64,000 nucleotides of DNA from Candidatus Micrarchaeota archaeon (GCA_016207165.1 JACQQD010000008.1:117447-181446), one strand, 5' to 3'; counted from the stretch's first letter, positions 15,206 to 51,024 are shown. Translations and numbers: made by a program. Notes: generated by a model from the sequence alone, not told the origin.

Positions 15206-16270
15206 TCACGTAAAGACGATTCCTTTTGATTGGTTGAAGGCGTGGGGGATGACGTTTCCGGATTCATCGAGCAGGTGGCCGGTTTCAAGGCGTTTGGGGC
15301 CGTTTCCAACGCCGCAGACCAGCGTCTCGGTGACCCCTGGAATTTCTTCCAGCATTTTTTGGACGGCTCCGGCTTGGTTTTTCGTGGTGTAGACGTGGGC
15401 GTTGGGTCCGGCGTCAAAGGTGTACGCCGCCTGGATGCCGTTGGCGTTAAACTCGTTCACGGCGTGCATGACGTCTTTGGAGTGGTCGTTGAGGTACAAA
15501 ATCGGGGGCCACGTGTCAAGCATCACGGCGTGCATGTTGCTGGACTCGCGCATGGTTAATTCGCCGAAGGTTTCAAAGTCTTTGGCTAGAACGGCTTTTT
15601 TCATGTCGTGGATGAGTCCGGGCAAGTACGCCAGGCGGGCTTTGTAGAGCTGGCTTGTGGCCACAGTCTGTTTCATGCCGGCTCGTGACGAGACTTTCTT
15701 TTTGGTGGCGTCAACGACGGCAATGACGTTGCGGATTTCCGGCCAATGCGTTGCCGGAGCGACTTGTTCGGCAAACGAGTCCGAGCCGTCGGCTTTGACG
15801 CCTTTCTTCCATTCCACGAATCCTCCCAGAACGGAGCGGCAGGCGGATCCGGAGCCCAGGCGCGCGAGCATGGAGGTTTCCCGGGGATTTAGTTTTAGTC
15901 CGGCGGCCATGGACGCGGCGCAGGAAAGCGCGGCAAGTCCTGCGGCGCTGGAGGCAAAGCCGGCGGCGGTGGGGAAACAGTTCAACGACGCGATGTGGGC
16001 TTTGTCTTGGATTCCGGCTTTTCGGCGGATGACGTCTAAAAGCTGTAGGCGTTCCGCGGTTTCCTTGTCTGAAAGATCGATTTTTTGGCCGTTGAGCCAG
16101 AACGAGTCGGCCTTGAATTTTTTCGAGTAGACGACCGTGGTGCGGGTCTTGAGGGTCTCGTCCATGGTAAAGGAAAGCGATCCTTCGGTGGGCAGGATGA
16201 GTTTCTCGTCGCGTTTGCCCCAGTACTTGACCACGGCAATGTTGGGCGTGGCTTCAAAAGTGGCTCTCAT
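15206..16270 (-). CDS. mvaD: Diphosphomevalonate decarboxylase
   Basis: NIAVVKYWGKRD, FPTAAGFASSAAG, GSGSACRS, YTFDAGPN. Confidence 0.95.
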   Translation of the reverse strand: MRATFEATPNIAVVKYWGKRDEKLILPTEGSLSFTMDETLKTRTTVVYSKKFKADSFWLNGQKIDLSDKETAERLQLLDVIRRKAGIQDKAHIASLNCFPTAAGFASSAAGLAALSCAASMAAGLKLNPRETSMLARLGSGSACRSVLGGFVEWKKGVKADGSDSFAEQVAPATHWPEIRNVIAVVDATKKKVSSRAGMKQTVATSQLYKARLAYLPGLIHDMKKAVLAKDFETFGELTMRESSNMHAVMLDTWPPILYLNDHSKDVMHAVNEFNANGIQAAYTFDAGPNAHVYTTKNQAGAVQKMLEEIPGVTETLVCGVGNGPKRLETGHLLDESGNVIPHAFNQSKGIVFT

Positions 16271-27773: not shown

Positions 27774-28199
27774 ATGGAATCCTGGATTGTTTACGCGTTG
27801 GTCGCCGTCTTGTTGTTGGGCGTGTCGAACTTCTTGTTTAAAACAGTGGTCAACGCCGTTGAATCCGAGGACTTGAAGTTGGAGGCCGCGTGGCCGGTTT
27901 TGGCCGTTTTTTTTGGGGCGGCATTGCTGGTGGCGTTGGCTTACGTCTACTTCGTCATCCAGCCGCCCGCGACGCTGCTTTTGTCCGTGGCGGCGTTGGC
28001 GGTTCTGTCCATGGTCGCGGTGGGCTTCATCTTTTTGTCGCTCAAGACGGGCAAGGTGGCGGTGGTCACCGCTTTGCTTGGTTTGAGCGCCGTGGTCGTC
28101 GGCGTTTTGTCTTATGCCTTCTTGGGCGACCGGTTTTCGGCCAAGGAATTGGTGGGAATGGGTTTGGCGTTGGCGGCCGTGTGGGCGCTTGCCGCGTAA
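27774..28199 (+). CDS. EamA/DMT-family membrane protein
   Basis: 5 TMs; SLKTGKVAVVT, FLGDRFS. Confidence 0.8.
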   Translation: MESWIVYALVAVLLLGVSNFLFKTVVNAVESEDLKLEAAWPVLAVFFGAALLVALAYVYFVIQPPATLLLSVAALAVLSMVAVGFIFLSLKTGKVAVVTALLGLSAVVVGVLSYAFLGDRFSAKELVGMGLALAAVWALAA

Positions 28200-28206
28200 G
28201 GGGCGT

Positions 28207-29328
28207 TCAGTCTTTTTGGAGTTTGAGGACGTCGACTTTCCTGCCGTTCTCGAATTGGCGGAGTTTTCGGCGCGTGTGTCCGGGGTTGGGGTATCTTTTT
28301 TCGAGTTGTTTTCGCCGTTCCTGGAGTTGTCGGACGCGGTCGTCGCCTAAGGCGTTGGCCCCAATTTCAAGGGCGTTGTGGATTTGCTCCAATTCGTCCA
28401 AGTCGAGGTGGACTTCCATGTATTTTTCGTATTCGCGGCGGTCGTTGGCCAACCGGTTTTGCAGTTCCAGCCACTCGTCTTCTTTCCCTGGTTCCGGGGG
28501 CTCGTCGGCCAGCCGCGCCGTGCTTTGTTTGAAATAGGAGAACAGCCGTTCATGGCGTTCTTCGGGAGTTGCGGGAGCCTTTTGAGTTCGGGATGTCGCG
28601 GGAAGCGTTTTTTCAAGGACGTGCCAGACGCGTCCGCCGGTGGCCCTGGAAAGCATGCGATCGCCCCACAAGCGCAGGGCGTCTTGTTCGGTGCGGGGTC
28701 GCTTGGGCTGGGAAACCAATTCGCGCAAGGCGTCCAGCATCCGCAGCGTGATGGCCAGTCCCTGGAAGTTCTTCTCGATTTTCTGGCTTTCCTTGTGCAG
28801 GTGCTCCATGTTTTCTCGAATCTGTTCTTGGGTCAGCAAGCCGTCGTCGGGGCGCGGGTGCCGGACTAAATTCTTGGCTTTATAGAACAAGGGGTAGCGT
28901 TGCCTGCCGAGTTTTTCGTGCCACCTTCGCCGTACCAGCGTGCGGGCGGGTAAAAACAGGCCGCTGGCCGCGGAGTAGAAGAACATGTGTTCGGGGTCTC
29001 CCACGGCGTGCGAGAAGGCCGCTCCCAAAGCCGAGGCGTGAAGCACGTCGCTGAGTTTTACGGATTCGGCTTTTCCGGTGTCCGTGGGGATGGGCAGCGG
29101 GTTTTCGCCGCGGACGATGGACAGCCGCGTTTCCGGGTTCGCGACGATGGCTTTCAGCGCCAGGTGGACGTAGTATTCTTGTTCGACGTCGCGGATGCGG
29201 CTTTCCACGATTTTTCGGGCCCGATTCGCATCCCAGTCTTTCAGGCGCAACGCGTATTCCTTGAGCATCTGGTTGGAAATGGTCCGGAAGCGGGAGGGCA
29301 AAGGCGAGCGGAAGGGTTTTTCACGCAT
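28207..29328 (-). CDS. Hypothetical Arg/Glu-rich protein
   Basis: 373-aa ORF filling the gap; short hydrophobic hairpin. Confidence 0.65.
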   Translation of the reverse strand: MREKPFRSPLPSRFRTISNQMLKEYALRLKDWDANRARKIVESRIRDVEQEYYVHLALKAIVANPETRLSIVRGENPLPIPTDTGKAESVKLSDVLHASALGAAFSHAVGDPEHMFFYSAASGLFLPARTLVRRRWHEKLGRQRYPLFYKAKNLVRHPRPDDGLLTQEQIRENMEHLHKESQKIEKNFQGLAITLRMLDALRELVSQPKRPRTEQDALRLWGDRMLSRATGGRVWHVLEKTLPATSRTQKAPATPEERHERLFSYFKQSTARLADEPPEPGKEDEWLELQNRLANDRREYEKYMEVHLDLDELEQIHNALEIGANALGDDRVRQLQERRKQLEKRYPNPGHTRRKLRQFENGRKVDVLKLQKD

Positions 29329-29481
29329 ATGGCTTTCCTGGTGTTCCCTCCAATATTAGGCTTTTTTCTGGGGTCAAACCCAAGAAATAAAAGCCACCGC
29401 GGCAAAAATTTTTTCACGTTTCTTGGGCGGTGAAGCCGTTTATTGGTACGCGGCCCAATTGGTTTTCGAGGGATTTACTTT

Positions 29482-30432
29482 ATGGACTTTGATTTTGACG
29501 TGTTGATTGTCGGCGCGGGCGCCGCGGGCTTGACGGCGGCTTTGTACACGTGCCGGAAAAACCTCAAGACGGCCATCGTCTCCATTGACGTGGGGGGGCA
29601 GACGAATTTGACGTCCAACATCGAGAACTATCCTGGGGTTGAACCCATGCATGGCGCGGTTTTGATGCAGAAGTTCCTCAAGCAAGCGCAGGGCGTGGGC
29701 GCCCAACTGATTTCCGGCAAAGTCGGCAGGATTGAAAAAATCGAGAACGGTTTTCGCGTCAACCTCAAGGACGGCCAAGCGTTTACGTCCAAATGCGTGC
29801 TGTTGGCTTTTGGCAAAGTCCCGCGCACCCTGGGCATTCCTGGGGAGGACCACTTTTTTGGGAAAGGCGTGTCGACTTGCGTCACGTGCGACGGGCCCCT
29901 GTTTCGGGGTAAGGACGTCGTGGTGGTGGGCGGCGGCAATTCCGCCATTGAAGGCGCTTTGGAACTGGCGGAAATCGCGAACAAGGTTTATTTGGTGCAC
30001 CGCCGGGACGCGTTTAGGGCGGACGAAATCACGGTGCAGAAGCTGAAGTCCCACAAGAACATGGAGTTGGTCTTGAATTCGGCGGCGGTGGAAGTCAGAG
30101 GCCAAAAATTCATTGACACGGTGGTCGTTCAAGACGTCAACACCAAGGCCACGCGCGACTTGGCCGTCAAAGGCATGTTTTTGGAGATTGGCTTCATCAT
30201 GGACATTTCCATGCTGGAGGGGTTGAACGTGAACGTCAACGCCAAGAAGGAGATCTTATCGGATTCCGTGACGTGCCACACCAACGTTCCTGGATTGTTT
30301 GCCGCCGGGGACTGCACGGCGATTCCTTTCAAGCAGACCGTCATTTCGGCGGGCGAGGGCGCCAAGGCGGCGTTGGAAATCCATCGTCACATGACTGGAG
30401 CGAAAGGCATTGCCCTGGATTGGGACCATTAA
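29482..30432 (+). CDS. trxB: Thioredoxin reductase
   Basis: GAGAAG, IENYPG, CVTCDG, GGGNSA, HRRDAFRA, FAAGD. Confidence 0.95.
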   Translation: MDFDFDVLIVGAGAAGLTAALYTCRKNLKTAIVSIDVGGQTNLTSNIENYPGVEPMHGAVLMQKFLKQAQGVGAQLISGKVGRIEKIENGFRVNLKDGQAFTSKCVLLAFGKVPRTLGIPGEDHFFGKGVSTCVTCDGPLFRGKDVVVVGGGNSAIEGALELAEIANKVYLVHRRDAFRADEITVQKLKSHKNMELVLNSAAVEVRGQKFIDTVVVQDVNTKATRDLAVKGMFLEIGFIMDISMLEGLNVNVNAKKEILSDSVTCHTNVPGLFAAGDCTAIPFKQTVISAGEGAKAALEIHRHMTGAKGIALDWDH

Positions 30433-32249
30433 GCGGCTTCGTGGTGCAGGGCTTTTGGCAGTAAAAGCGTCAGGGCGGCGTCTTTTCCGTGATCCAGTTC
30501 CCGTGCCATGTGTTCCAACACCGTTCGCGGGTCGTCCTTATCGGTACGGAGGTTTCGCCAGTGCCGGCGCCAGCCTTTACCCAGTTTGAGTTGGACGGCG
30601 TTTTCCTGCAGTTCTTGCGCGGTCAGGTTGACGCCGGAACGCCTTGTCAATTCTGTTGCCAGAAATTCGTAGGCCTGTTCCCTGCTTTGGGGGAGCTTGG
30701 GCACCGGTAAACTTGCCGCTTTAGCTCCGGCGAGGTCCTTGTACTGGCTTTGCAGGCGCTCCCGTTCGCTCTGACCGGAAATGCCGAGGCTGTACAGCAG
30801 CTTGTTGAGGTTGTGCCATGTATCGGCTTTTGCGCCGGGACCCTTGGGCGGTTTTCTCACCCGGTTTCCAAGAGAGTCAATCCACCAGTCTTTGTCTTCG
30901 AGGATCAGGTTGCCGGTGTTGTTGACCACGGCTTTGGCGACGTGTTGCGCAAAGCCGTCCAGTCTGTCTTGGGTGAAGTGGGGGTCCACCTGGGCTTTGC
31001 GGCGAAGCAATAGTTCGGTGACTTTGATGAAGTCGTAGCCGGCGTTGGGGTGGTGTTCATGGACTTGGGCAAGCGGGACGCCCAATTCGGCGGCCACGGC
31101 TTTTTGGGCGGCGGCTTGGAACGCGTTGGTGGGCGGCGCTGGCGTTTTTGCGGGGGCCGGGCCGGGCGTCAACGTGATTTGAGGCGGCTTGCCGCCGGTG
31201 GTGTGCGTGAACAGTGGCGTCGGGGCTTCAGCCCCGGTCGCGACTGCGGCTGGCGTGGGCTTGGCAAAAGATTGTTCGATTTGGTCCGCGATGAAGCCAG
31301 GGGTTTTCAGCGCACCCAGCATGATGACGGCGCCGATGGCGGCGGCTTTGGCTCGTTCTTTCCAGAGAAACGGCGCCGGTTTTTCCGCGAAGCGTCGCAT
31401 GGCTGTGTGTTTGTCTTTTCGGCGCAAAAGCTTGAGTTCCTCGATGCCGTGGAGCATCTGGCGCGGGGTGGCGGTGGCTTTGGAAAGGATGTCGTTCGTC
31501 ATTTGGGCAGGAAAGTGCGAGAGCATGTATTCCCTCACCAAAAACTCGTTCACGTCGCCTTGGACGCGCCGCAGTTCTTGTTTGTACTCGTCCAAGGCGG
31601 CGCCTTTGACTTCAGGACTCCAGTTCGGCTCGGCGCGTATGGCGTGGCTCAGCTTGTTTTGTGCGGTGTCGCCTTGCTCGGCGGCTTTCAGGTGTCCTTG
31701 AGCGACGTGGAGTTGTTGTTCCAGGAGGCGTTTCATCTCGTCGGGATGAACGTCGCTGGGTAATCTCCATTCCCGGTTGCCTACGCGGATGAAGTTGCCT
31801 CCCAGAAGCACTAGCGGGTCTTTTCTTCCGCTGATTCTCCTCTGGCGCTCCATGAAGGCGCTGAGCCTTGCCAGAAATCCGCGGAACATGAAGTTCGGTC
31901 CCAAGTCTCGGAATTGGTGCTGCAAGCGATTTTCGATGTCGGCGTCAACTTTTTCTTGGAGCTCAGCTTCAAGCGCTCGCGTTTTTTCCTCGAATTCCAG
32001 GAGTTTCGGGTTGGTGCGCCGCAATGCGTTTTCATGTTCTCTTTCGACCGCCGGCGCGTACCCGTCGCCCAGCATGGTTTGAACCCGGGTTTGGATTTCT
32101 TCGTGAAGGGCGCGTTCTTCGTGGGCGCTCAGCCGTGTTTTGATGCCTAAGACGGCGGGAGTCCACGTCTGCTCTCCCGCCCATCGCATGAGTTTCCTAG
32201 CGTGGTTTCGGAATGCTTCCAGGAACGTCATTTTTTCTTCCTCGGCCAC
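30429..32249 (-). CDS. Single-pass membrane protein with Pro/Thr linker (paralog 2)
   Basis: Charged helical N-terminus, TM AAAIGAVIMLGAL, P/T-rich linker. Confidence 0.75.
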   Translation of the reverse strand: MAEEEKMTFLEAFRNHARKLMRWAGEQTWTPAVLGIKTRLSAHEERALHEEIQTRVQTMLGDGYAPAVEREHENALRRTNPKLLEFEEKTRALEAELQEKVDADIENRLQHQFRDLGPNFMFRGFLARLSAFMERQRRISGRKDPLVLLGGNFIRVGNREWRLPSDVHPDEMKRLLEQQLHVAQGHLKAAEQGDTAQNKLSHAIRAEPNWSPEVKGAALDEYKQELRRVQGDVNEFLVREYMLSHFPAQMTNDILSKATATPRQMLHGIEELKLLRRKDKHTAMRRFAEKPAPFLWKERAKAAAIGAVIMLGALKTPGFIADQIEQSFAKPTPAAVATGAEAPTPLFTHTTGGKPPQITLTPGPAPAKTPAPPTNAFQAAAQKAVAAELGVPLAQVHEHHPNAGYDFIKVTELLLRRKAQVDPHFTQDRLDGFAQHVAKAVVNNTGNLILEDKDWWIDSLGNRVRKPPKGPGAKADTWHNLNKLLYSLGISGQSERERLQSQYKDLAGAKAASLPVPKLPQSREQAYEFLATELTRRSGVNLTAQELQENAVQLKLGKGWRRHWRNLRTDKDDPRTVLEHMARELDHGKDAALTLLLPKALHHEAA

Positions 32250-32545
32250 CGGCTAGCGATTTCATCGGATTGGGCAATCAATTGCCTGACTTCGTTTTGG
32301 AGTCTTATCACTTCCTTTTCTTGCTCTACTTGGGCCTGGACACTCGTTTTTGCCAACTCCATCATGCGGCGGATTTCAAGGCCTGTATGGTCGTTTCCCG
32401 CTTGTTTGCGGATGTCTTGGCACACGGCTTCTGCGATTTGTCGAGCCGTTTCAGGATGGATGTGGTGTCTTTCGGGCAATTTTTTCTCGAGGAATGCCTG
32501 CAGGCCCGTCAGGCTTGCTTCCAACCGTTGCCTCGTTGTTTCCAT
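32228..32545 (-). CDS. Small helical hypothetical protein
   Basis: 105 aa; overlaps the downstream start. Confidence 0.65.
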   Translation of the reverse strand: METTRQRLEASLTGLQAFLEKKLPERHHIHPETARQIAEAVCQDIRKQAGNDHTGLEIRRMMELAKTSVQAQVEQEKEVIRLQNEVRQLIAQSDEIASRWPRKKK

Positions 32546-32577
32546 GATAGCAGATATTTAGGGAAACGACTTTTTTA

Positions 32578-32622
32578 TAGCAATCCCCGACTATTTTGTC
32601 GGGTCACTTTCTTGGTTTGCTG
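32578..32622. mobile_element. TA-flanked palindromic mini-element, copy C (45 bp, single unit)
   Basis: TA|tagcaatccccgactattttgtcgggtcactttcttggtttgctg|TA; same termini as copies A and B. Confidence 0.75.
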
Positions 32623-32643
32623 TATTGACTTTCGTTTTTTTCC

Positions 32644-34404
32644 TTATTTTTTGGGTGTGCGCGGGCTTTTGGTTCGCGTGCGGCCGAGTTCGTCTTCGTA
32701 GGTGGACGCGCTTCCGTCTTGTTTCCAGCCGCCTTGGGATACCGGGATTTCCTTCATGCGTTGGTGGTAGCGTTGCATCACGGTTTGGACGTCGGCGTCT
32801 TTCCATAGTCCGCCGCCGTCCATGCCCCAGGGAACGGCCCAATTCCAGCTTTTCAGGATGGCGCGCAGGTTTTGGTCGACGTCGGCTTTCGTCTTGTTCT
32901 CGTCCAGCCACGTGATGGATCCGTCTTTGACGCCTTGGTCGCGGGCCAAGAGGATTTTGGTGTGCCAGTTTCGGCCCCATAACTTCAAGTCGCCGACGTG
33001 GAGCGCCTTTTCTTTCTCGGCTTTGCGTTCCATGAGCACTTCCAAGAGGATGCGGTCGTTGACGCCGGTGTTCTTGTCCGTGACGTTGGCCTGGCCTTTT
33101 TTGGCCGCGGATTGGAAGGCGTCCACGATTTGGTTGGCGTACTGGGCAAACAGGCTTGGTTCCGGGGGTGGCGTGGGTCCGCCGCCCGTTACTTCAGGCG
33201 CCGGAGTCTTGGGCGACGGCGTTTTCGGCGAATCGGGGGCTGTGGGTGAAGGCGTGACGGCGACTGAAGTTGGCGTCGCGCTTCTCCGGATGGCTGGCGG
33301 CTCGGCTTGTTGGGCGAAGTATTGTTCGGTTGCTGGCGCCACGACTTTGGGCCCGCTTACGCCCGCCAGCATGGTGGCCATGACGCCGACGGCCGCCCAG
33401 TTTTGAGCTTTGGCGGATTGGGAGAGTCTTTTGACCCAGGATTCGGCTTGCCCTGGGGTTTGGATGCCTTGCAGGGCCTTGTCCACGCCTTGCTCTTCGA
33501 TGATGTGGACGATGAACGCGTGGTTGATGTCTCTGCGCAATGCCAAGTTTTCGGCCAGGTCGTATCCGTAGCGCGAGCCGATGTGGTGTTTGAACAAAAG
33601 CTCCGCGATTTTGCGTTCGGCGTGTCCGCGGCCAAAGAGGCCTTGGACTTGGAACATGTCGCTCAGGTGCTGGGGTCCTCCGCCTTGTTTGTAAAACACT
33701 TTTCCGAGTGCGCGCTTCGTTTTGCCCCAGCCTTGCTTGACGCCGTGCTTGAATTTGTTCAAGCGTCCTTCGGCAGGCAGGGCTTCTTGGGGTGCGGGTT
33801 CTGGGTGTTCTGAGAACTGTTCGAGAGCGGCTTGGTATTGGGCCAGCATTTGTTGGGGTGCGGCGTCGCGGTCCCATTCCAGGTTGCCGATGGTGGGGTG
33901 GTTTCCGCCGGTCAGTTCGTGCACGTCGTCGAGGTATTGTTGAAAGCTGAAGTGTTGTCCGAGGCCGAATCGGGCTCGGAATCTCTCGGATAAGTCGTCT
34001 TCGACGAATTGCTTGAGGCGGCGCGCGGTGGCTTGTTCTTGGGATTGTTTGCGTTGGGGGTGGCGTTCTTCTTCGCGTTCATGGCGGGCTTGCAGGCGAG
34101 CCGCTTTTTTCAAGATTTCTTGGACGGCGGATTCCAATTCGGCGTCGGCGTTGGCCACTCCCCGGGCGGTGGCCTCGGTGACGGCGTCATAGAAGTCTCG
34201 AGTCGTGTGGTCCTTGACTTCTCTTTCGATGGCGGCCTGGTACCTTTCCGCCAAGCCGTCCAGGGCGTGTTCGGTTTGCAGTCGAGCAAAGTCGTGGGCG
34301 GCTTCCCGGCTGGCGGAAAACTCGCCGAAGAATCTGGGCCAGTTGATGTTTTTGAGGTTTTCCCGGAACCGGTTCACGCTTTCCCGAATTTTTCGTAGGA
34401 TCAT
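32644..34404 (-). CDS. Single-pass membrane protein with Pro/Thr linker (paralog 1)
   Basis: Same architecture as 30429-32249, with shared motifs. Confidence 0.75.
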   Translation of the reverse strand: MILRKIRESVNRFRENLKNINWPRFFGEFSASREAAHDFARLQTEHALDGLAERYQAAIEREVKDHTTRDFYDAVTEATARGVANADAELESAVQEILKKAARLQARHEREEERHPQRKQSQEQATARRLKQFVEDDLSERFRARFGLGQHFSFQQYLDDVHELTGGNHPTIGNLEWDRDAAPQQMLAQYQAALEQFSEHPEPAPQEALPAEGRLNKFKHGVKQGWGKTKRALGKVFYKQGGGPQHLSDMFQVQGLFGRGHAERKIAELLFKHHIGSRYGYDLAENLALRRDINHAFIVHIIEEQGVDKALQGIQTPGQAESWVKRLSQSAKAQNWAAVGVMATMLAGVSGPKVVAPATEQYFAQQAEPPAIRRSATPTSVAVTPSPTAPDSPKTPSPKTPAPEVTGGGPTPPPEPSLFAQYANQIVDAFQSAAKKGQANVTDKNTGVNDRILLEVLMERKAEKEKALHVGDLKLWGRNWHTKILLARDQGVKDGSITWLDENKTKADVDQNLRAILKSWNWAVPWGMDGGGLWKDADVQTVMQRYHQRMKEIPVSQGGWKQDGSASTYEDELGRTRTKSPRTPKK

Positions 34405-46331: not shown

Positions 46332-46439
46332 GCGGCTGTGGTCTAATGGTTTGCTTCCTGGTTTCAAGATTCAAACCGGATATTGGCATGATTCGAGCTT
46401 CCCAAGCTCGCTGCGCGGGTTCGATTCCCGCCAGCCGCA
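46332..46439 (+). tRNA. tRNA-Gly(CCC) with a ~37-nt intron in the D-loop
   Basis: Acceptor stem GCGGCTG/CAGCCGC; anticodon arm CGAGC-TTCCCAA-GCTCG; T arm GCGGG-TTCGATT-CCCGC; hairpin-forming insert at ~46350-46386. Confidence 0.9.
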
Positions 46440-46550
46440 TTCAGTCCAGGTCTGTGTGCGCAATTGGTCAGATTGTGCCGTATTGCGCAAGAATATGCAG
46501 AATACGGCACTATTTAACCTCAGGCCTGTTTGGCCATTGACGAGCGGGTC
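46429..46550 (+). repeat. att core plus left end X (copy 1)
   Basis: Diverged direct repeat of 48718-48837 (cagtccaggtctgtgtgcg ... gcactatttaacctcaggcc). Confidence 0.9.
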
Positions 46551-46625
46551 TTCGTTCAAAATTGGATCAAGTGCATAGCGTTGTTCCCGCGTTTCTCTTG
46601 AAAATGACGGCGCGTTTGATATTAT

Positions 46626-47648
46626 TTAATGTTGGGCGGGTACTTTTTCAACATGCCAGAGTTGCCGTTGAGGGTCAAACCGTGCTCGAAACAAAGACTG
46701 CATGACTTCCGCATCCACTCCAAGGGAGTCTAAATGAGGACGAAAGTGTTGAATCATCGCTTCTCGCAAGGAAGGATCCATCAGGTGTTCTTTGAGGGAA
46801 GCGTGGTTCGCGCCCCATACCATTCCAATGGTTGGTTTTTTACCGCGCTCTTTGGCGACGGTTTCCGCAACGATCTCTTCCAATTTTTTCGCACCCATCG
46901 CATTTCGGAACTCGGATGCGGCCGTTGGAAAGAAGCTTCCAGAGTACCAAGCTAACGCGCGTCGGGCAATTTCCCTTCGACGGATTTCACCCGGCCAAGA
47001 GACGGCATGAAGCAACGCTTGAAACGGAGGCAAAAAGGCGTAAGAAAAGGCGGCTGCGCCAGCTTTCAAACCTACTTTTTTTCCCAATCCTAAAAATGCC
47101 CGACGCGAAAGGGTGGCCGAATCCCTGATTTCTTGAGCTCTTTTAAGACGCGCTTCAAGCTTTTTGAGTTTATTTGATCGTGATTTTCCTTGTTGGGCTA
47201 ATTCCGTTTTATGGGCCTGAATTTCGCCCTCGATTAGTTTTTGTGCGGCTTCTTGTTGACCTCTGGCCTTTTTCTTCTCGAGTATTTCTAGCAGGTCAAG
47301 CAAGGCAGATCCGCCTAGTAGCATCCCGATAATTCTTCCCGGTCCGGGCCTGTATTTGAGCCGAAGGTTCACGTCCTCCCGATTCAAGTCAAAATCCCCT
47401 AACCAGACTTCCGCTCCACCTTGAGCCGCTTTGGCCAAAAGCATCCGCAACTTTCTGTCTCCGGCGTTTAGAGTCGCTTTGCTGTTCATCACCCGTCCAA
47501 GGTATTCCGCATCGTCTTTTTTTGTCAACGGATAATCGAAAAACAGAGCGTCCATGTGCTGCGGATCGAGGTCCGACCAGTCCTCTTGATGGGATTCCAA
47601 TTCTAGTGCGTAATGCGCCTTAGGTGTTTCAAAGCGGAGGTATCCCAT
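46626..47648 (-). CDS. Hypothetical cargo protein with an internal twin-arginine-like motif
   Basis: 340 aa; SRRAFLGLG followed by a hydrophobic stretch; visibly AT-richer DNA. Confidence 0.7.
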   Translation of the reverse strand: MGYLRFETPKAHYALELESHQEDWSDLDPQHMDALFFDYPLTKKDDAEYLGRVMNSKATLNAGDRKLRMLLAKAAQGGAEVWLGDFDLNREDVNLRLKYRPGPGRIIGMLLGGSALLDLLEILEKKKARGQQEAAQKLIEGEIQAHKTELAQQGKSRSNKLKKLEARLKRAQEIRDSATLSRRAFLGLGKKVGLKAGAAAFSYAFLPPFQALLHAVSWPGEIRRREIARRALAWYSGSFFPTAASEFRNAMGAKKLEEIVAETVAKERGKKPTIGMVWGANHASLKEHLMDPSLREAMIQHFRPHLDSLGVDAEVMQSLFRARFDPQRQLWHVEKVPAQH

Positions 47649-47725
47649 ATGCAATCTCTGAACTTCTTTTCTTTAAAACAATTTGACCTCCGCTTTTCGG
47701 CCGTCAATAGTCCTTTCGATCCACA

Positions 47726-47850
47726 TTTCAAATGTTTGACCTATGTCTTGAAGAACTTCTCATGCGTCTCCTTGAGGCGCGCATAAAGGAAATTCTCAAG
47801 CGTAATGGTTCGTCCGTTGTCTGAATCTTCCAGGGCCGAAAAATAGGTTA
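47726..47850 (-). pseudogene. Fic gene 3' remnant
   Basis: LTYFSALEDSDNGRTITLENFLYARLKETHEKFFKT*VKHL, near-identical to the C-terminus of 49462-50415. Confidence 0.9.
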
Positions 47851-47898
47851 ATAAGATAGTCTTACCAATAAGACTTTAGCTGAAAATGAGGTGTTCAT

Positions 47899-48180
47899 AT
47901 GGCTCGTTCAAAGGACCTTCAAATCACGAAGATGTCGTCCCGCGGCCAAATCGTCATTCCGGAAGGCATCCGGGACGAACTGGACCTGCACGCCGGATCC
48001 ACGTTCGTCGTATTCGGAAAAAAGGAAGCGGATGCCATCATGCTGAAAAAACTGGAGTTTCCCGAACCGAGCAAAGCCTTTGACGAAATGGCGCAATGGG
48101 GAGAAAAACACGCCAAATCGAAAGGGTTGGATACGTCCGCCAGCAGAATCGTTGAAAACCAGCACAAACGCAGAAAATGA
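47899..48180 (+). CDS. AbrB/MazE-family antitoxin
   Basis: KMSSRGQIVIPEGIRDELDL. Confidence 0.9.
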   Translation: MARSKDLQITKMSSRGQIVIPEGIRDELDLHAGSTFVVFGKKEADAIMLKKLEFPEPSKAFDEMAQWGEKHAKSKGLDTSASRIVENQHKRRK

Positions 48181-48590
48181 CTTCCCTTCCAAGCGTGGTT
48201 TTTGACACGAACGTCCTGGTGTCCGCCATCTTGTCCACGAAAGGGGCCTCATACGCACTGGTGCGCCTCGCTGCCGAGGGAAAAATCGTCGGCTACACGT
48301 CCAAGACGCTGATGGATGAATTCCGGGAGATCATCCAGCGGGATTACGAAGTCTCGCCGGAGAGGGCCAACCGCATGGTCGACGTGTTCCTGCAGTTCCT
48401 GAAAATAGTCGACCCCACCATTCGACTGGACGCCGTCCGCGAAGATCCGGATGACAACCGTGTTTTGGAATGCGCCGCCATGGCCAACGCGAAATTCGTG
48501 GTTTCCTGGGATCCGCACCTCACCAAACTTGGCAGGTTCGAGGAGATTCAAATCTTGAATCCGGGAAAAATGCTCGGTTTGCTGAAGTAA
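48177..48590 (+). CDS. PIN-domain toxin
   Basis: VVFDTNVLVSA, EDPDDNRVLECA, SWDPHL; ATGA overlap. Confidence 0.9.
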   Translation: MTSLPSVVFDTNVLVSAILSTKGASYALVRLAAEGKIVGYTSKTLMDEFREIIQRDYEVSPERANRMVDVFLQFLKIVDPTIRLDAVREDPDDNRVLECAAMANAKFVVSWDPHLTKLGRFEEIQILNPGKMLGLLK

Positions 48591-48622
48591 ACCGAACGGC
48601 ATCAGGTCTGTTTCTTTTTAAC

Positions 48623-48837
48623 GTCGTGTTGAATTCAACACGATTTTACCAAACAAACCACACCCACCAAGCAGGCCTCTAAGCGCGGCAGCCGCATCCA
48701 GAACAAGTCTGAGTTCGCGCCAGCCGCATCCAGTCCAGGTCTGTGTGCGTTTTTTGCACGATTGTGCACATATGCGCATGATTATGCAGAATTCAGCACT
48801 ATTTAACCTCAGGCCCGTTTGGCCCTTGACGAGGGTC
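48623..48837 (+). repeat. Central junction: right end Y, att core, left end X
   Basis: First half matches 50494-50600 and second half matches 46429-46550; contains the 20-bp palindrome tcgtgttgaattcaacacga. Confidence 0.9.
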
Positions 48838-48861
48838 AAATTGTCCTTTGTCAGGCTTCAT

Positions 48862-49380
48862 TTATTCCTGACTGTTTTTCAAGTTGAACGTTACATTCAT
48901 TACTCGTTCGGAAAACGCTCGGGCACGAATCGAATCGGAATCACTAAGATTCCCAAAACCAAAGACTGAAAATGTCCCTTGCAGTTGGGCATAAAACACA
49001 GTTTTATCCAATTGCGCGCCCTTCTGCCGCAGATTCTTCACGACAAAATCCAAATTTCCGGGTTCATTTCTAATACGACGGTCTTGATCGGTTAAATCAA
49101 ACAAAATTGATTTTACGGCCAAGCCAAAGTTTCCGGTTCCTTTCTTGACACAAAAAAGCGCCATCTTTGTTTTTGAAAGGTTTTGCGATTCCAAGTATTT
49201 CTGGATTGAAAAGCCATGATGCAGTAGGCCTCCAGCAAAAACAAAATCAAACCCGGAAATTGATGGTGTTTCCAATGAAGTCTTAACGACAACCCTCGAA
49301 TTTATCTTCCGTGCGCCTTGAGCAATAGCCTCAGCCAATTGTTTAGCTTTTGAACCATCATAAACCACCAAAACGTTCAT
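48862..49380 (-). CDS. Flavodoxin-like fold protein (cargo)
   Basis: MNVLVVYDG..LAEAIAQGA, FDFVFAGG, KMALF, RARAF; AT-rich DNA. Confidence 0.65.
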   Translation of the reverse strand: MNVLVVYDGSKAKQLAEAIAQGARKINSRVVVKTSLETPSISGFDFVFAGGLLHHGFSIQKYLESQNLSKTKMALFCVKKGTGNFGLAVKSILFDLTDQDRRIRNEPGNLDFVVKNLRQKGAQLDKTVFYAQLQGTFSVFGFGNLSDSDSIRARAFSERVMNVTFNLKNSQE

Positions 49381-49461
49381 GTTTGAGGGTAACCGTCCAA
49401 ACTTAATTAAACCCACATTTTTCTCAGGAAAATGTGACAATATACCGAAGAGTCTCAATAA

Positions 49462-50415
49462 TCATTCCAAATATTTGACGTAAATCTTGAAGAACTTTTC
49501 ATGCGTCTCCTTAAGCCGCGCATAAAGAAAATTCTCCAAAGTGATGGTTCGACCGTTGTCCGCATCTTCCAGAGCTGAAAAGTAGGACAGCCGCTGCGTT
49601 TTGCGGATGATGAGTGGAGGGTAGCCAGCTTGCAACAACATGGCGTTGATGAGGAAGCGACCGACGCGGCCGTTGCCATCTTCGAAAGGATGGATTTGTT
49701 CGAAACGGCCGTGAAATTCAGCTGCGAGTTGCAGCGGGTGCTTTTTGGAGCGGTTTTCCTCAAACCAGACAAATAGCTCGCCCATTTGTTTTGCGACGCC
49801 TTCCGGCGGCGTGGTGAGCACTTGCCGGCCGTGGATGTAATTGGGCAGTTGCTTGTAGCCCGTAGCGATTCCCATGTCCTTGACGAGAATCGAGTGCATT
49901 TTGTGCATGTCCTTTTCGCGGACTTTGAGTTTGCCCCGCAAAATAAGGTCAATGACTTGCCGGGAATTACGGGTTTCGTAGATTTCGCGCAAGTTTTTGC
50001 CCGGAATGGCGACGTTTTCATGAATGACGATGGCAACGTCCTTGAGAGTCAACGAGTTTCCTTCAATGGCGTTGGATTCGTAGGTGAAGTTAACGGTGAA
50101 GCGGTCGAACAAATCGGTTTTTTGGGCATCCGTCATCTTCGACATCAGTTTGCGGTATTCCAACCGCATGCGTTCCATTTTTTCAGGCGCCGAAAGGTCT
50201 CGTAGTTTCAGCGAGGCATAGTGCTTTTTCGCGAAACGAACCCGAGCTTCAACCTCTTTTTGTTCAAAATAATCCTCAAGTTCCCGATTGTTTTTGCCGG
50301 TTCGGCCTTGGACGCGCTTGGCTATTTTGTGCACCCGACCGTCCGGTAAGCGGATGGACTTGACCGCATACAGATAGTCTTTGCCTTTGATGCGCTTTTG
50401 AGCGAAATGAGCCAC
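49462..50415 (-). CDS. Fic-domain protein
   Basis: HPFEDGNGRVGR catalytic motif; SNAIEGN inhibitory-helix motif. Confidence 0.95.
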   Translation of the reverse strand: MAHFAQKRIKGKDYLYAVKSIRLPDGRVHKIAKRVQGRTGKNNRELEDYFEQKEVEARVRFAKKHYASLKLRDLSAPEKMERMRLEYRKLMSKMTDAQKTDLFDRFTVNFTYESNAIEGNSLTLKDVAIVIHENVAIPGKNLREIYETRNSRQVIDLILRGKLKVREKDMHKMHSILVKDMGIATGYKQLPNYIHGRQVLTTPPEGVAKQMGELFVWFEENRSKKHPLQLAAEFHGRFEQIHPFEDGNGRVGRFLINAMLLQAGYPPLIIRKTQRLSYFSALEDADNGRTITLENFLYARLKETHEKFFKIYVKYLE

Positions 50416-50422
50416 GAATTAG

Positions 50423-50465
50423 TTAACCCCACAGATTTATTTAAACCTATCTTTTGTGGGGTTAA
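50423..50465 (-). promoter_or_regulatory. Inverted repeat bracketing the fic TATA box
   Basis: ttaaccccaca ... tgtggggttaa (11-bp arms) around tttatttaaa. Confidence 0.6.
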
Positions 50466-50493
50466 AACAAACGTTACGGACTATTTCAATTCA

Positions 50494-50600
50494 TGTGCCG
50501 AATTCAACGCGATTCAACCAAACAAACAACGCACGCAGCCAACACTGTAAGCGCGGCAGCCGCATTGAGGACAGGACTCAAGGTGCGCCAGCCGCATTCA
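50494..50600 (+). repeat. Right end Y plus att core (copy 2)
   Basis: gaattcaac..accaaacaaac..taagcgcggcagccgcat..gcgccagccgcattca. Confidence 0.9.
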
Positions 50601-50691: not shown

Positions 50692-50883
50692 TTAAACTTT
50701 CTTGGCGTTCTTGGCGCGTGGGCCGCGTTCGGATTGTTCCACGTCGTATTCGACTTGGTCGCCGACGGCAAACGCGGTGCCCCCCTGGATGGCCGAGGAG
50801 TGCACATACACGTCTTTTCCGTCGTCTCCGGTAATGAACCCGAACCCGCGGGCGTCGTTGAACATCTTGACTTTTCCTTTCAT
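50692..50883 (-). CDS. Cold-shock domain protein
   Basis: KGKVKMFN, RGFGFI (RNP1), DVYVH (RNP2); aggtga SD-like site. Confidence 0.95.
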   Translation of the reverse strand: MKGKVKMFNDARGFGFITGDDGKDVYVHSSAIQGGTAFAVGDQVEYDVEQSERGPRAKNAKKV

Positions 50884-51024
50884 ACTCAATCACCTAATTT
50901 TTCAAAATCAGAAAACAGGTTTTGCTTTCCAACCCAATTCTTGGGGTGTTGGTGGTATAAATGGCCGACTTTTGGCTTTGTTTCGGGTTTCCGGCGGGCG
51001 GGTAATCAAGAAATCAGTCTTTGG

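Follow-up and report, generated by a model that had tools for sequence, protein, structure and literature searches.

What placed two blocks of foreign genes in tandem directly behind a tRNA-Gly gene in the genome of a tiny groundwater archaeon, Candidatus Micrarchaeota, and how could such blocks have moved? We addressed this question in a 64,000-nt stretch (the window; all coordinates count from its first letter unless a contig is named), for which the original prediction envisaged a family of integrase-less cassettes mobilised in trans.

A tandem array at the 3′ end of tRNA-Gly(CCC)

The 12-nt core CGCCAGCCGCATYCA, which is the 3′ end of an intron-bearing tRNA-Gly(CCC), matches the 64-kb window exactly at 46429, 48718 and 50586, and these three copies delimit two units of 2289 bp (unit 1) and 1868 bp (unit 2), confirming the predicted repeats and sizes. 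Both units are low in GC (0.499 and 0.464, whereas the 10-kb flanks have 0.571 and 0.556 and the contig as a whole 0.566). With up to 2 mismatches allowed, the core has 8 matches in the window, compared with 0.44 expected, a number reached in 0 of 100 shuffles. Two of the mismatched copies, at 48686 and 50554, represent a second, inner core that was absent from the earlier description; those found elsewhere in the window, at 15432, 31241 and 54054 on the minus strand, look like chance matches. The tRNA gene holds a 38-nt insert in the D region and is missed by ARAGORN, which at default settings reported no tRNA; its anticodon loop, CUUCCCAAG, is read as CCC, that is, Gly. The features of the array and its flanks are as follows.

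46332..46439, +, tRNA-Gly(CCC), proposed integration target (Rfam RF00005, 52.4 bits, E 2.2e-8)
46429..46440, +, outer core copy 1 (CGCCAGCCGCAT), tRNA 3′ end, attL-type junction (core search)
46441..46544, +, arm X of unit 1 (83% to 48714-48833; nhmmer profile)
46626..47654, -, 342-aa ORF, unit 1 cargo (no Pfam, NCBIfam or PADLOC family)
47724..47847, -, remnant of a Fic gene 3′ end, unit 1 (85% identical to 49463-49586)
47899..48180, +, AbrB/MazE-type antitoxin candidate, unit 1 (PF04014, 24.4 bits, just below the cut-off of 24.7)
48177..48590, +, PIN-domain toxin candidate, unit 1 (PF13470 PIN_3, 78.9 bits)
48619..48685, +, arm Y of unit 1 (homologous to the arms beside the integrase genes in islands C3 and C5, below)
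48686..48697, +, inner core of unit 1 (CGGCAGCCGCAT, 1 mismatch to the tRNA end; core search)
48698..48717, +, spacer between inner and outer core, unit 1 (sequence comparison)
48718..48729, +, outer core copy 2, unit 1/unit 2 junction (core search; overlapping public contigs)
48730..48833, +, arm X of unit 2 (alignment to unit 1)
48862..49458, -, 198-aa ORF, unit 2 (no Pfam family)
49462..50415, -, Fic-domain protein, unit 2 (PF02661, 67.2 bits)
50487..50553, +, arm Y of unit 2 (alignment to unit 1)
50554..50565, +, inner core of unit 2 (core search)
50566..50585, +, spacer, unit 2 (sequence comparison)
50586..50597, +, outer core copy 3, right array boundary, attR-type (core search)
50692..50889, -, cold-shock protein gene, chromosomal flank (PF00313, 71.5 bits)

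The cold-shock protein gene adjoins tRNA-Gly(CCC) also in the congener G001.

Arm alignments bear out the conserved unit ends of the original prediction, X on the left and Y on the right. Arm X is 83% identical over 120 nt (46425-46544 versus 48714-48833); arm Y reaches 83% between 48626-48661 and 50495-50530 and 79% between 48677-48732 and 50545-50600, or about 70-80% overall. Within X, unit 1 displays a box (GTCTGTGTGCG, 46450-46460), a palindrome-like site (46497-46510) and the conserved 20-mer GCACTATTTAACCTCAGGCC (46507-46526), with counterparts in unit 2 at 48739-48749, 48786-48799 and 48796-48815, respectively. Within Y, the palindrome GTGTTGAATTCAACAC (48626-48641) and ACCAAACAAAC (48648-48658) of unit 1 correspond to the palindrome-like GTGCCGAATTCAACGC (50495-50510) and ACCAAACAAAC (50517-50527) of unit 2, where an inverted box, CGCACGCAGCC, follows at 50530-50540. 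In each spacer, a box-like sequence extends 2 nt into the outer core (CTGAGTTCGCG at 48709-48719 in unit 1, CTCAAGGTGCG at 50577-50587 in unit 2), and the inner and outer cores at the right end of unit 1 lie 32 bp apart, start to start. The Y-core-X junction between the units resembles attP, as had been proposed. Folded as single-stranded DNA, this junction (48615-48840) forms local hairpins only (z = -2.5).

Neither unit encodes a recombinase, again in agreement with the original prediction: the ORFs between 46440 and 50600 encode a PIN protein, an AbrB-type protein, a Fic protein and two proteins without a family; no integrase match was found in the 64-kb window at E<=1; and a Pfam search of the 1.27-Mb genome yielded no PF00589 or PF00239 match on contig C8, which holds the array. 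The Phage_integrase (n=3) and Resolvase (n=1) matches of this genome all fall on other contigs, the nearest tyrosine recombinases being on C1, C3 and C5. An element of the SSV type, in which the integrase is split on integration, was rejected because there are no flanking integrase fragments and the integrases of related islands are intact.

Cargo of the two units

In unit 1, the AbrB/MazE-type gene lies directly upstream of the PIN gene with a 4-nt overlap, the arrangement of a VapBC-type toxin-antitoxin pair, with the activity predicted from sequence. The 342-aa ORF of this unit matched only itself in a search of 5.8 billion proteins, with a best Atlas score of 0.78. In unit 2, the 198-aa ORF is possibly flavodoxin-like, a lead provided by Atlas feature matches of 0.82-0.84 to Flavodoxin_5 clusters. 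Its neighbour is a predicted member of the Fic/DOC family, judging by the domain and by HPFEDGNGRVGR in its translation, which we take to be a form of the Fic catalytic motif, and it matches a candidate defence family (PADLOC PDC-S04, E 1.4e-41; SoFic, E 5.7e-25).

The claim that cargo differs between the units holds for most genes but not for all of the DNA. Unit 1 retains, in the position and orientation of the unit 2 Fic gene, 124 nt with about 35 in-frame codons that end in a stop and translate as the Fic C-terminus. Given this remnant, the two cargos are not independent and share ancestry beyond the arms, so that an old tandem duplication is possible for this pair of units.

Further members of the family

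A third X..Y element, of about 7.4 kb, is present in the same genome (G000) at tRNA-Gly(UCC). Here, the tRNA gene (C12:131065-131135) is followed by spacer, core and X, a permuted core layout, whereas Y lies at C2:4776-4848 and terminates in the 11-nt 3′ end of tRNA-Gly(UCC); the two contigs share a 63-nt overlap containing 2 mismatches, and their join is crossed by an MscS ORF. Its cargo comprises otsB, otsA, MscS, a Na/Ca exchanger, a Na/H exchanger and an SNF symporter; otsA occurs in 3 of 31 relatives and in neither of 2 congeners. A fourth element, of about 1.1 kb, has the same layout at tRNA-Gly(UCC) in the congener G002 and contains a single 250-aa ORF. In all, two genomes hold 4 members, distributed over two tRNA-Gly genes; their cargo differs in every case and none (0/4) has a recombinase, which supports the notion of a family of recombinase-less elements with conserved ends. 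The narrower description as ~2 kb toxin-antitoxin or defence cassettes does not survive: sizes range from 1.1 to 7.4 kb, and cargo extends to genes for trehalose synthesis and for ion transporters. More X/Y variants, and a diverged element with Fic and Y, are present in Logan contigs of 4 runs.

The arms of the family are 66-82% alike. Arms from this genome resemble one another no more than they resemble those of other genomes, so that the insertions are possibly old. At the tRNA-Gly(CCC) site of G001, there is only a T-rich segment of 20 nt and, behind it, an inner core, a spacer and an outer core that is degenerate, these three being orthologous to the right end of the array (36 of 43 nt identical). 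This site is the scar of an imprecise loss rather than of clean excision.

Integrase-bearing islands with homologous arms

The original prediction suggested looking for an autonomous copy in which a tyrosine recombinase adjoins X or Y; two such relatives, with the integrase gene beside a Y-like arm, were found in the same genome. Low-GC islands at tRNA-Glu (C3:215-4802, GC 0.49) and tRNA-Leu (C5:~28050-33750, GC 0.44) are closed by exact 12-nt tRNA-end repeats at +4564 and +5676, respectively, and each encodes, starting beside its Y-like arm, an intact Xer-like tyrosine integrase with a C-terminal zinc ribbon (406 and 429 aa; PF00589, 73.8 and 71.9 bits). These are tRNA-targeting tyrosine-integrase islands. 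Archaeal XerA is the best-scoring model for the integrases, but their scores (107.6, 99.7 and 84.1 bits) are far under the NCBIfam equivalog cut-off of 220, and assignment to XerA was rejected. The integrase family is patchy and multi-copy, being found in 28 of 61 relatives at E<=1e-20.

The arms link these islands to the array. Searched with nhmmer against the whole genome, the Y-arm profile built from the 4 cassettes has inverted X (E 8e-4) and the C3 island end (17.5 bits, E 0.0034) as its best non-self matches; conversely, the X profile finds Y in inverted orientation (E 0.005) and, with 15.8 bits (E 0.0084), that C3 arm again, compared with best matches of only 7.9 and 11.1 bits in a control on the reversed genome. 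Alignment of 6 right ends indicates that the Y arms of the cassettes are homologous to the arms on the integrase side of islands C3 and C5, and a 23-nt Y motif, sought in 68 genomes of the order, occurs in only 5 places in G000, all of them cassette or island ends, and once in G002. Between X and the integrase-distal island arms, likeness extends over about 35 nt only, as judged by eye. A double core is likewise present at the integrase-proximal end of integrase-bearing elements in G002 and G001, with spacings of 32 nt and 78 nt, respectively. The resident integrases are located at tRNA-Glu and tRNA-Leu cores, and the searches turned up no integrase element whose core derives from a tRNA-Gly. 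Because their ends match the island ends, the units are most likely dependent relatives of the integrase islands.

Origin and mobility of the array

We consider it probable that two integrase-less, att-bounded genomic islets are joined in tandem at the 3′ end of tRNA-Gly(CCC) and belong to a family of at least 4 copies in a Micrarchaeota genus, with arms homologous to the att arms of tRNA-targeting integrase islands. Repeats, arms, the lack of a recombinase gene, low GC, additional copies with other cargo and homology to island ends are all directly observed. The circular form of a unit would carry Y-arm, inner core, a spacer of about 20 nt, outer core and X-arm, and an integrase supplied in trans would exchange strands within a 9-12-nt core identical to the 3′ strand of the tRNA acceptor. 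Crossover at the outer core would produce tRNA/X ... Y-inner core-spacer-core/flank, the layout of the array, and a second insertion into the pre-existing core would give the tandem; crossover at the inner core would instead generate the permuted layout at tRNA-Gly(UCC).

Movement of the units in trans is plausible. Evidence of it did not emerge from the Logan contigs of 4 public runs (one study): there was no excision, empty-site or circle junction, and depth in run X1 was flat, about 21-23, over flank, unit 1 and unit 2. Since contigs drop rare variants, the absence of junctions weighs little.

Flat depth and the lack of junction variants in these contigs would also suit an immobile relic, in which a single insertion of one Fic island at tRNA-Gly(CCC) was followed by its tandem duplication through unequal crossing-over between cores, after which the copies diverged, had part of their cargo replaced and became static. 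The matching Fic remnant of unit 1, arm identities of 69-82% within the unit pair, comparable to the divergence between species, and the orthologous right-end module in G001 all fit such a history. We nevertheless regard it as rather unlikely: it leaves unexplained the X..Y elements with unrelated cargo at tRNA-Gly(UCC) in G000 and G002, their permuted core layout, and the additional X/Y variants and diverged Fic+Y contig in the samples, and a second mechanism would still be needed for cargo replacement in each copy.

It is highly improbable that X and Y are host sequences, namely, flanks, promoters or small RNA genes of tRNA-Gly loci, between which genes arrived separately. The first 23 nt of X do resemble the native trailer of tRNA-Gly(UCC) in the cassette-free G001, and a TATA-like TATTTAA can be read in X, but the arms appear again within the array, together with a repeat of the tRNA end, and share homology with the ends of integrase islands located at other tRNAs, the DNA between them is low in GC, and Rfam detects no RNA family at the arms. 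Least probable of the explanations considered is an assembly artefact, whereby the assembly fused two strain versions of a single island at the core repeat of 48718. Public contigs do end at the repeats, and none of those listed spans the whole stretch; however, most genes differ between units 1 and 2, which are therefore not alleles, depth in run X1 is equal in flank and both units, and contigs ending at 48733 (X1 record 3, 48383-48733) and 48736 (X2 record 12, 47982-48736) overlap a third (X4 record 27, 48686-48915) over the junction-specific spacer.

Relationship to known elements

Integrons, including those reported from archaeal metagenome-assembled genomes, carry short cassettes that vary in cargo, end in a recombination site and lack a recombinase of their own, next to a platform of intI with attI and a promoter; their attC sites are imperfect inverted repeats that fold as single strands. 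The array described here shares the short, variable, recombinase-less cassettes, but the original comparison to integrons is not supported, and an integron was rejected: no integrase gene lies next to the array (the closest tyrosine recombinases being those on C1, C3 and C5), and the repeats are direct copies of a tRNA end with protein-site-like arms and are apparently not attC hairpins. The genes lie on both strands, so that a common promoter for the array is unlikely. IMEX and pdif modules likewise lack a recombinase and are moved by a Xer-type tyrosine recombinase encoded elsewhere, but the cassettes target a tRNA 3′ end, not dif, and their candidate recombinases are island-encoded.

The reading that suits the units best is that they are archaeal equivalents of the cis-mobilizable elements (CIMEs) of bacteria, joined in tandem. 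By sequence, they would classify as CIME-like, having att repeats, no PF00589 or PF00239 gene, and att sites related to those of an integrase element. CIMEs, which in streptococci accompany tandem accretion at the att sites of ICEs and IMEs, have lost their integration genes and kept attL and attR; they have been defined, and a three-step scenario set out, in PMC5704250. Both kinds of element form tandems at the 3′ end of a gene, such as a tRNA gene, and derive from or are related to integrase-bearing elements. By contrast, the host of the cassettes is archaeal and conjugation genes are lacking; the 4 cassettes keep arms of about 100 nt around four unrelated cargos; their right end is a double core, 32 bp apart; and no autonomous element adjoins them at their tRNA, so that any movement, itself putative, would need an integrase in trans rather than cis-mobilisation.

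Among archaea, a review describes several integrated mobile genetic elements without an integrase, presumably lost after integration, and notes that tandem integration at one locus is possible (PMC8371274); a Thaumarchaeota survey reports arrays arising by re-use of one site (PMC6563490). Such elements are described as decayed plasmids or proviruses, whereas here we encounter a family of small islets in Micrarchaeota that share arms and swap cargo. The terms 'DPANN', 'Micrarchaeota' and 'zinc' have 0 mentions in the main text of PMC8371274, and, judging by titles and abstract openings, none of the papers listed for Micrarchaeota, integrases and tRNAs describes such elements in this group.

Implications

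The interpretation of this locus as mobile cassettes is partly supported, and to it are now added further X..Y elements, integrase islands with homologous arms, the double core and the Fic remnant. A bolder reading, though unlikely, is that this Micrarchaeota genus practises cassette exchange at its tRNA-Gly genes. The Xer-like zinc-ribbon integrases of the islands would act in trans on an attP with two cores 32 bp apart, tuned to Gly-CCC and Gly-UCC; given two cores matched to two isoacceptors, one cassette could enter either tRNA gene, and integron-like arrays may thus be built without a platform integrase.

Tandem cassettes without a recombinase gene at tRNA-Gly(CCC)

A pattern scan of the window recovered the predicted core of the tRNA 3′ end, CGCCAGCCGCATYCA, in exact copies at all three positions (46429, 48718, and 50586), which delimit unit 1 (2289 bp) and unit 2 (1868 bp); with up to 2 mismatches allowed, the window holds 8 matches against 0.44 expected, a count reached in none of 100 shuffles. 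The tRNA itself is a full-length Rfam match with a 38-nt insert in the D region, and its anticodon loop, CUUCCCAAG, identifies it as tRNA-Gly(CCC); this match overrules the ARAGORN count of 0 tRNAs in the window. Inserts are expected in the tRNAs of an archaeon, and the source genome has many insert-bearing tRNAs. The conserved ends that had been described for both units, namely, the left arm X and the right arm Y, were also returned by a repeat finder. In addition, each Y arm ends in a second, mismatched copy of the core, the inner core, which the original prediction had missed and which precedes the outer core by 32 bp, the spacer between the two resembling the first 23 nt of X. The arms contain a palindrome of the GTGCCGAATTCGGCAC type and a box, GTCTGTGTGCG.

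Features of the array (window coordinates)
46332-46439: tRNA-Gly(CCC), Rfam 52.4 bits, E 2.2e-8
46429, 48718, 50586: outer cores
46425-46544 and 48714-48833: X arms, 83% identity across 120 nt
48626-48661 and 50495-50530: Y arms, first block, 83% identity
48677-48732 and 50545-50600: Y arms, second block, 79% identity
48686 and 50554: inner cores, CGGCAGCCGCAT
47724-47847: remnant of a Fic gene in unit 1

Both units are foreign in composition: their GC is 0.499 (unit 1) and 0.464 (unit 2), whereas the 10-kb flanks have 0.571 and 0.556. Neither encodes a recombinase, as originally stated, and a domain search found no tyrosine or serine recombinase domain on the contig (C8).

Cargo of the two units
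Unit 1: 342-aa ORF; no family, sole relative found is itself; best protein Atlas score 0.78, a lead only
Unit 1: AbrB/MazE-type ORF; 24.4 bits, cut-off 24.7
Unit 1: PIN_3 protein; 78.9 bits
Unit 2: 198-aa ORF; flavodoxin-like as a lead only, protein Atlas score 0.84
Unit 2: Fic protein; 67.2 bits; PADLOC candidate family PDC-S04, E 1.4e-41; also SoFic

The claim that the cargo differs between the units holds for most genes but not for all of the sequence: the stretch at 47724-47847 of unit 1, previously overlooked, shares 85% identity with the 3′ end of the unit 2 Fic gene and still translates in frame into the Fic C-terminus, indicating that unit 1 formerly held a Fic gene. The AbrB-PIN pair has taken the place of the 5′ part of that gene.

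Related cassettes at tRNA-Gly(UCC)

The suggested search for further copies of X and Y uncovered cassettes with other cargo at tRNA-Gly(UCC), both in the source genome and in a congener (G002). In the source genome (1.27 Mb), the parts are distributed over two contigs.

C12:131065-131135: tRNA-Gly(UCC)
C12:131168-131273: X arm, directly 3′ of the tRNA
C2:4776-4848: Y arm

The last 63 nt of C12 overlap the start of C2 with 2 mismatches, and an MscS reading frame runs on across both, so that we read the two as one element of ~7.4 kb. Its cargo comprises genes for trehalose-6-phosphate phosphatase and synthase, an MscS channel, a Na/Ca exchanger, a Na/H exchanger, and an SNF symporter, but none for a recombinase; given that otsA was detected in 3 of the 31 relatives searched and not in the two congeners, this cargo is accessory. 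The GC content of the element, 0.50-0.59 per 500 nt, is near the genome value. The order of its parts is permuted: the tRNA end is followed by a 23-nt spacer, the second core, X, the cargo, Y, and a final core that is identical to the UCC tRNA's own 11-nt end. The same permuted layout is found at tRNA-Gly(UCC) of G002, where the cargo is a single 250-aa ORF of no family; of 61 related genomes, these two were found to have a Y-core-X junction. Variable cargo between conserved arms is present at two tRNA genes and in two genomes. Similarity is 66-82% among the four X arms and 69-77% among the four Y arms, with pairs from one genome no closer than pairs from different genomes.

An exact scan for the Y motif returned 1 record in the genome contig collection, the congener's contig, and 0 in the metagenome and viral contig collections; the core+X pattern gave 0 in viral contigs, and a looser version of it 0 in metagenome contigs. 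No autonomous element with a tRNA-Gly core was detected by exact-pattern scans of the genome, metagenome, and viral contig collections. On another contig of the source genome (C10), weak Y-like matches within repetitive coding sequence (AACAACAC repeats) were dismissed as chance.

Integrase islands with cassette-like ends

The source genome encodes three tyrosine recombinases, two of which (406 aa on C3 and 429 aa on C5) are 62% identical paralogues with a C-terminal zinc ribbon, each in a low-GC island.

Integrase islands of the source genome
C3:215-4802: at tRNA-Glu; the last 12 nt of the tRNA again, exact, at C3:215-226; integrase start ~80 nt inside the repeat
C5:~28050-33750: at tRNA-Leu (Rfam, C5:27968-28053; missed by ARAGORN); exact 12-nt repeat 5676 nt downstream; integrase start just inside

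The autonomous arrangement that the original prediction had proposed to look for, a tyrosine recombinase next to a Y-like arm, is present at both island ends: the cassette Y arms can be aligned with the sequence from the far repeat to the integrase start, and common to both are a palindrome-like site (GTGCGGAATTCGGCAC type), CACGATTNNACCAAA, and ~43-47 nt to the core. When a profile built solely from the four cassette Y arms was run against the whole genome, the best non-self matches were an inverted X (E 8e-4) and the C3 island end (17.5 bits, E 0.0034); an X-arm profile matched an inverted Y (E 0.005) and the C3 arm (15.8 bits, E 0.0084), compared with top scores of 7.9 and 11.1 bits in the reversed-genome control. 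These inverted cross-matches indicate that X and Y are partly inverted repeats of one another. The palindrome is common to the two arms, as is the box (as GTCTGTGTGCG or its complement), and the C5 island has a perfect 10-nt inverted pair at the corresponding positions. Closest to the cassette arms is the C3 arm, although the two islands use Glu and Leu cores. Within the source genome, a 23-nt Y motif is confined to the Y arms of the three cassettes and the ends of the two islands, and it occurs elsewhere in 68 genomes of the order once in G002; one further match with 1 mismatch (genome G007) was discarded, being at the level of the reversed-pattern control (2 in 68 genomes).

This integrase family is present in 28 of 61 relatives, often in multiple copies. 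The integrases of the source genome score best against the archaeal XerA model, yet far under its cut-off. Inspected by eye, 7 of 21 integrase upstream regions have a tRNA 3′ end directly upstream (loci L046, L047, L049, L051, L053, L054, and L067), with the box, the palindrome, and an AT-rich stretch, to varying degrees, between the tRNA end and the start codon; for the homologues at L044 and L045, no tRNA was found within the 1.5-kb flanks. The integrase elements of both congeners carry two cores at the integrase-proximal end, spaced start to start by 32 nt in G002, exactly as in the cassettes, and by 78 nt in G001, so that the double core is a feature of the family and no accident of the window locus. 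These two elements (L043 1309-1480, reverse strand of the locus, and L050 1353-1477) target a tRNA ending in CGG(T/C)CAAGGCGT, with the core duplicated integrase-proximally; for the counterpart tRNA of the source genome (C6:126067-126138), the only repeats carry 1 mismatch (+5.5 and +7.1 kb), and GC is normal.

Sequencing runs and congeners speak against current mobility

The region is covered by assembled contigs of four public runs from one study, with some stretches lacking coverage in two of them (runs X3 and X4); depth in the best run is flat, ~21-23 over the flank and both units. No excision, empty-site, or circle junctions were found in the contigs of the four runs, a form of data that cannot show rare forms. 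The concern that the assembly at 48718 might be strain-chimeric is countered by overlapping contigs that share the junction-specific spacer at 48686-48736. Further variants of X and Y, and a diverged Fic gene beside a Y1-like arm, are found in the contigs, indicating that related elements are present in the community. Two apparent rearrangements were rejected: the 15 letters of a joint skipping 2304 nt belong to the third X copy, on C12, and a joint going back 1838 nt is a diverged Fic 5′ region (23 differences in 243 nt) that is joined via 31 other letters to a Y1-like arm, i.e., another element of the community. Contigs of runs X1 and X4 have other X and Y variants at window positions 46432 and 46468-46505; in one of these, with 30 letters visible, a Y-like end (...AAAGCGCGG) leads straight into the core and X1-like sequence, and could represent a single-core Y-X junction of another array or a circle.

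Comparison of the interval between tRNA-Gly(CCC) and csp across relatives, suggested as a check, was informative for G001 but not elsewhere, the ppsA and csp flanks not being collinear across the genus. In G001, ~960 bp separate tRNA-Gly(CCC) from the same csp gene; 3′ of this tRNA come a T-rich 20 nt and then an inner core, a spacer, and a degenerate outer core, which agree with the array's right end at 36 of 43 positions. Behind its tRNA-Gly(UCC), G001 has only a trailer resembling the first 23 nt of X. These remains are scars, and the loss was imprecise; the association of the elements with both tRNA-Gly genes is older than the split of these species. The ~850 bp from scar to csp in G001 (L034 544-1500, contig C17 of that genome) holds two ORFs absent from the window and could be a further, arm-less insertion.

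Other tRNA-linked features

At no fewer than 7 (at least seven) tRNA genes of the source genome (L075-L081), the last 12-20 nt of the tRNA recur, exact, 84-156 nt downstream.

Short tRNA-end repeats in the source genome
C8:845-983
C12:19327-19495
C8:76114-76213
C8:8645-8800
C8:23517-23613
C10:4402-4499
C8:6290-6423
C6:21062-21146

A T-rich terminator sits after the second copy, and the GC-rich intervening stretch ends like a second T-arm and acceptor strand, with a conserved ~45-nt hairpin in the T loop. The stretch matches no Rfam family at E≤1; its consensus fold has 18 pairs, 5 with compensatory changes, and a covariance model detects 9, 8, and 11 copies in the genus's three genomes, with several in G001 and G002 located immediately 3′ of tRNA genes; of 38 other relatives, 3 have 1-2 copies. 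It may be a mini integrated element, a scar, a half-tRNA gene, or a 3′-proximal intron.

Insert positions vary between orthologous tRNA-Gly genes: in tRNA-Gly(CCC), the 38-nt insert is in the D region in the window and near the anticodon region in G001 (L034 424-543), and tRNA-Gly(UCC) has none in the source genome (L013 5066-5136) and two each in G001 (L033) and G002 (L025). With the intron option on or off, ARAGORN missed tRNA-Gly(CCC) and the tRNA-Leu of C5. The third tyrosine recombinase of the source genome (372 aa) overlaps the 3′ end of an intron-bearing tRNA-Met (C1:152884-164700; L018 and L019), the last 12 nt of which recur, exact, 11,669 nt downstream; no longer repeat of this 3′ end was found. 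The sole serine recombinase of the genome is inside this span, and a second AbrB/PIN pair is just upstream of tRNA-Met.

Discussion

With their core repeats, conserved arms, and foreign composition, their lack of a recombinase, and the homology of their arms to the ends of integrase islands, the units are most likely non-autonomous relatives of tRNA-targeting integrase islands, arranged in tandem and carrying a toxin-antitoxin pair and a Fic gene. The circular form would consist of the Y arm, the inner core, the spacer, the outer core, and the X arm. Strand exchange between its outer core and tRNA-Gly(CCC) would produce the layout seen in the window, with a second insertion, into a pre-existing core, giving the tandem, whereas exchange at the inner core with tRNA-Gly(UCC) would produce the permuted layout of the C12/C2 element and of G002. 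The letters of the cores fit this two-core model: those adjoining chromosomal DNA carry the tRNA's own letters, and those internal to an element read CGGCAGCCGCA, one step from either tRNA. In G002, the one position that differs between the tRNA core and the far core places the crossover to the right of it. Alternatively, units 1 and 2 are possibly an old tandem duplication in which cargo was replaced later.

The interpretation of the units as recombinase-less cassettes with common ends, related to integrase islands, is supported, and they may be mobilised in trans. The label of an integron-like array is not supported: unlike an integron, the array lacks an adjacent integrase and has genes on both strands, and its ends appear not to pair in the manner of attC, the junction at 48615-48840 forming local hairpins only when folded as single-stranded DNA. 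Among described systems, the units come nearest to the bacterial cis-mobilizable element, which has lost the integration genes but kept attL and attR and is often in tandem with kin at a tRNA gene (PMC5704250). For archaea, a review describes integrated elements without an integrase, presumably lost, and tandem integration at one locus (PMC8371274), and a survey of Thaumarchaeota describes arrays arising through site re-use (PMC6563490). Judged by their titles and the openings of their abstracts, the papers listed for Micrarchaeota, integrases, and tRNA describe no such elements for Micrarchaeota. Unlike SSV-type elements, the units have no flanking integrase fragments.

How DPANN archaea such as Micrarchaeota, whose genomes are very small, acquire genes is, to our knowledge, little understood. 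Here, accessory genes reach tRNA-Gly genes as short, recombinase-free modules, bringing a toxin-antitoxin pair, a candidate-defence Fic gene, and, at the sister locus, a full trehalose and ion-transport set; a widespread family of integrase islands has ends that match those of the modules. Should the modules still be mobile, they would form an archaeal counterpart of bacterial cis-mobilizable elements and integron cassettes, and a simple system, with a 12-nt core, ~100-nt arms, and a defined integrase family, for studying how tyrosine integrases choose among tRNA genes. If movement has ceased, the locus documents the decay of islands into fixed accessory genes.
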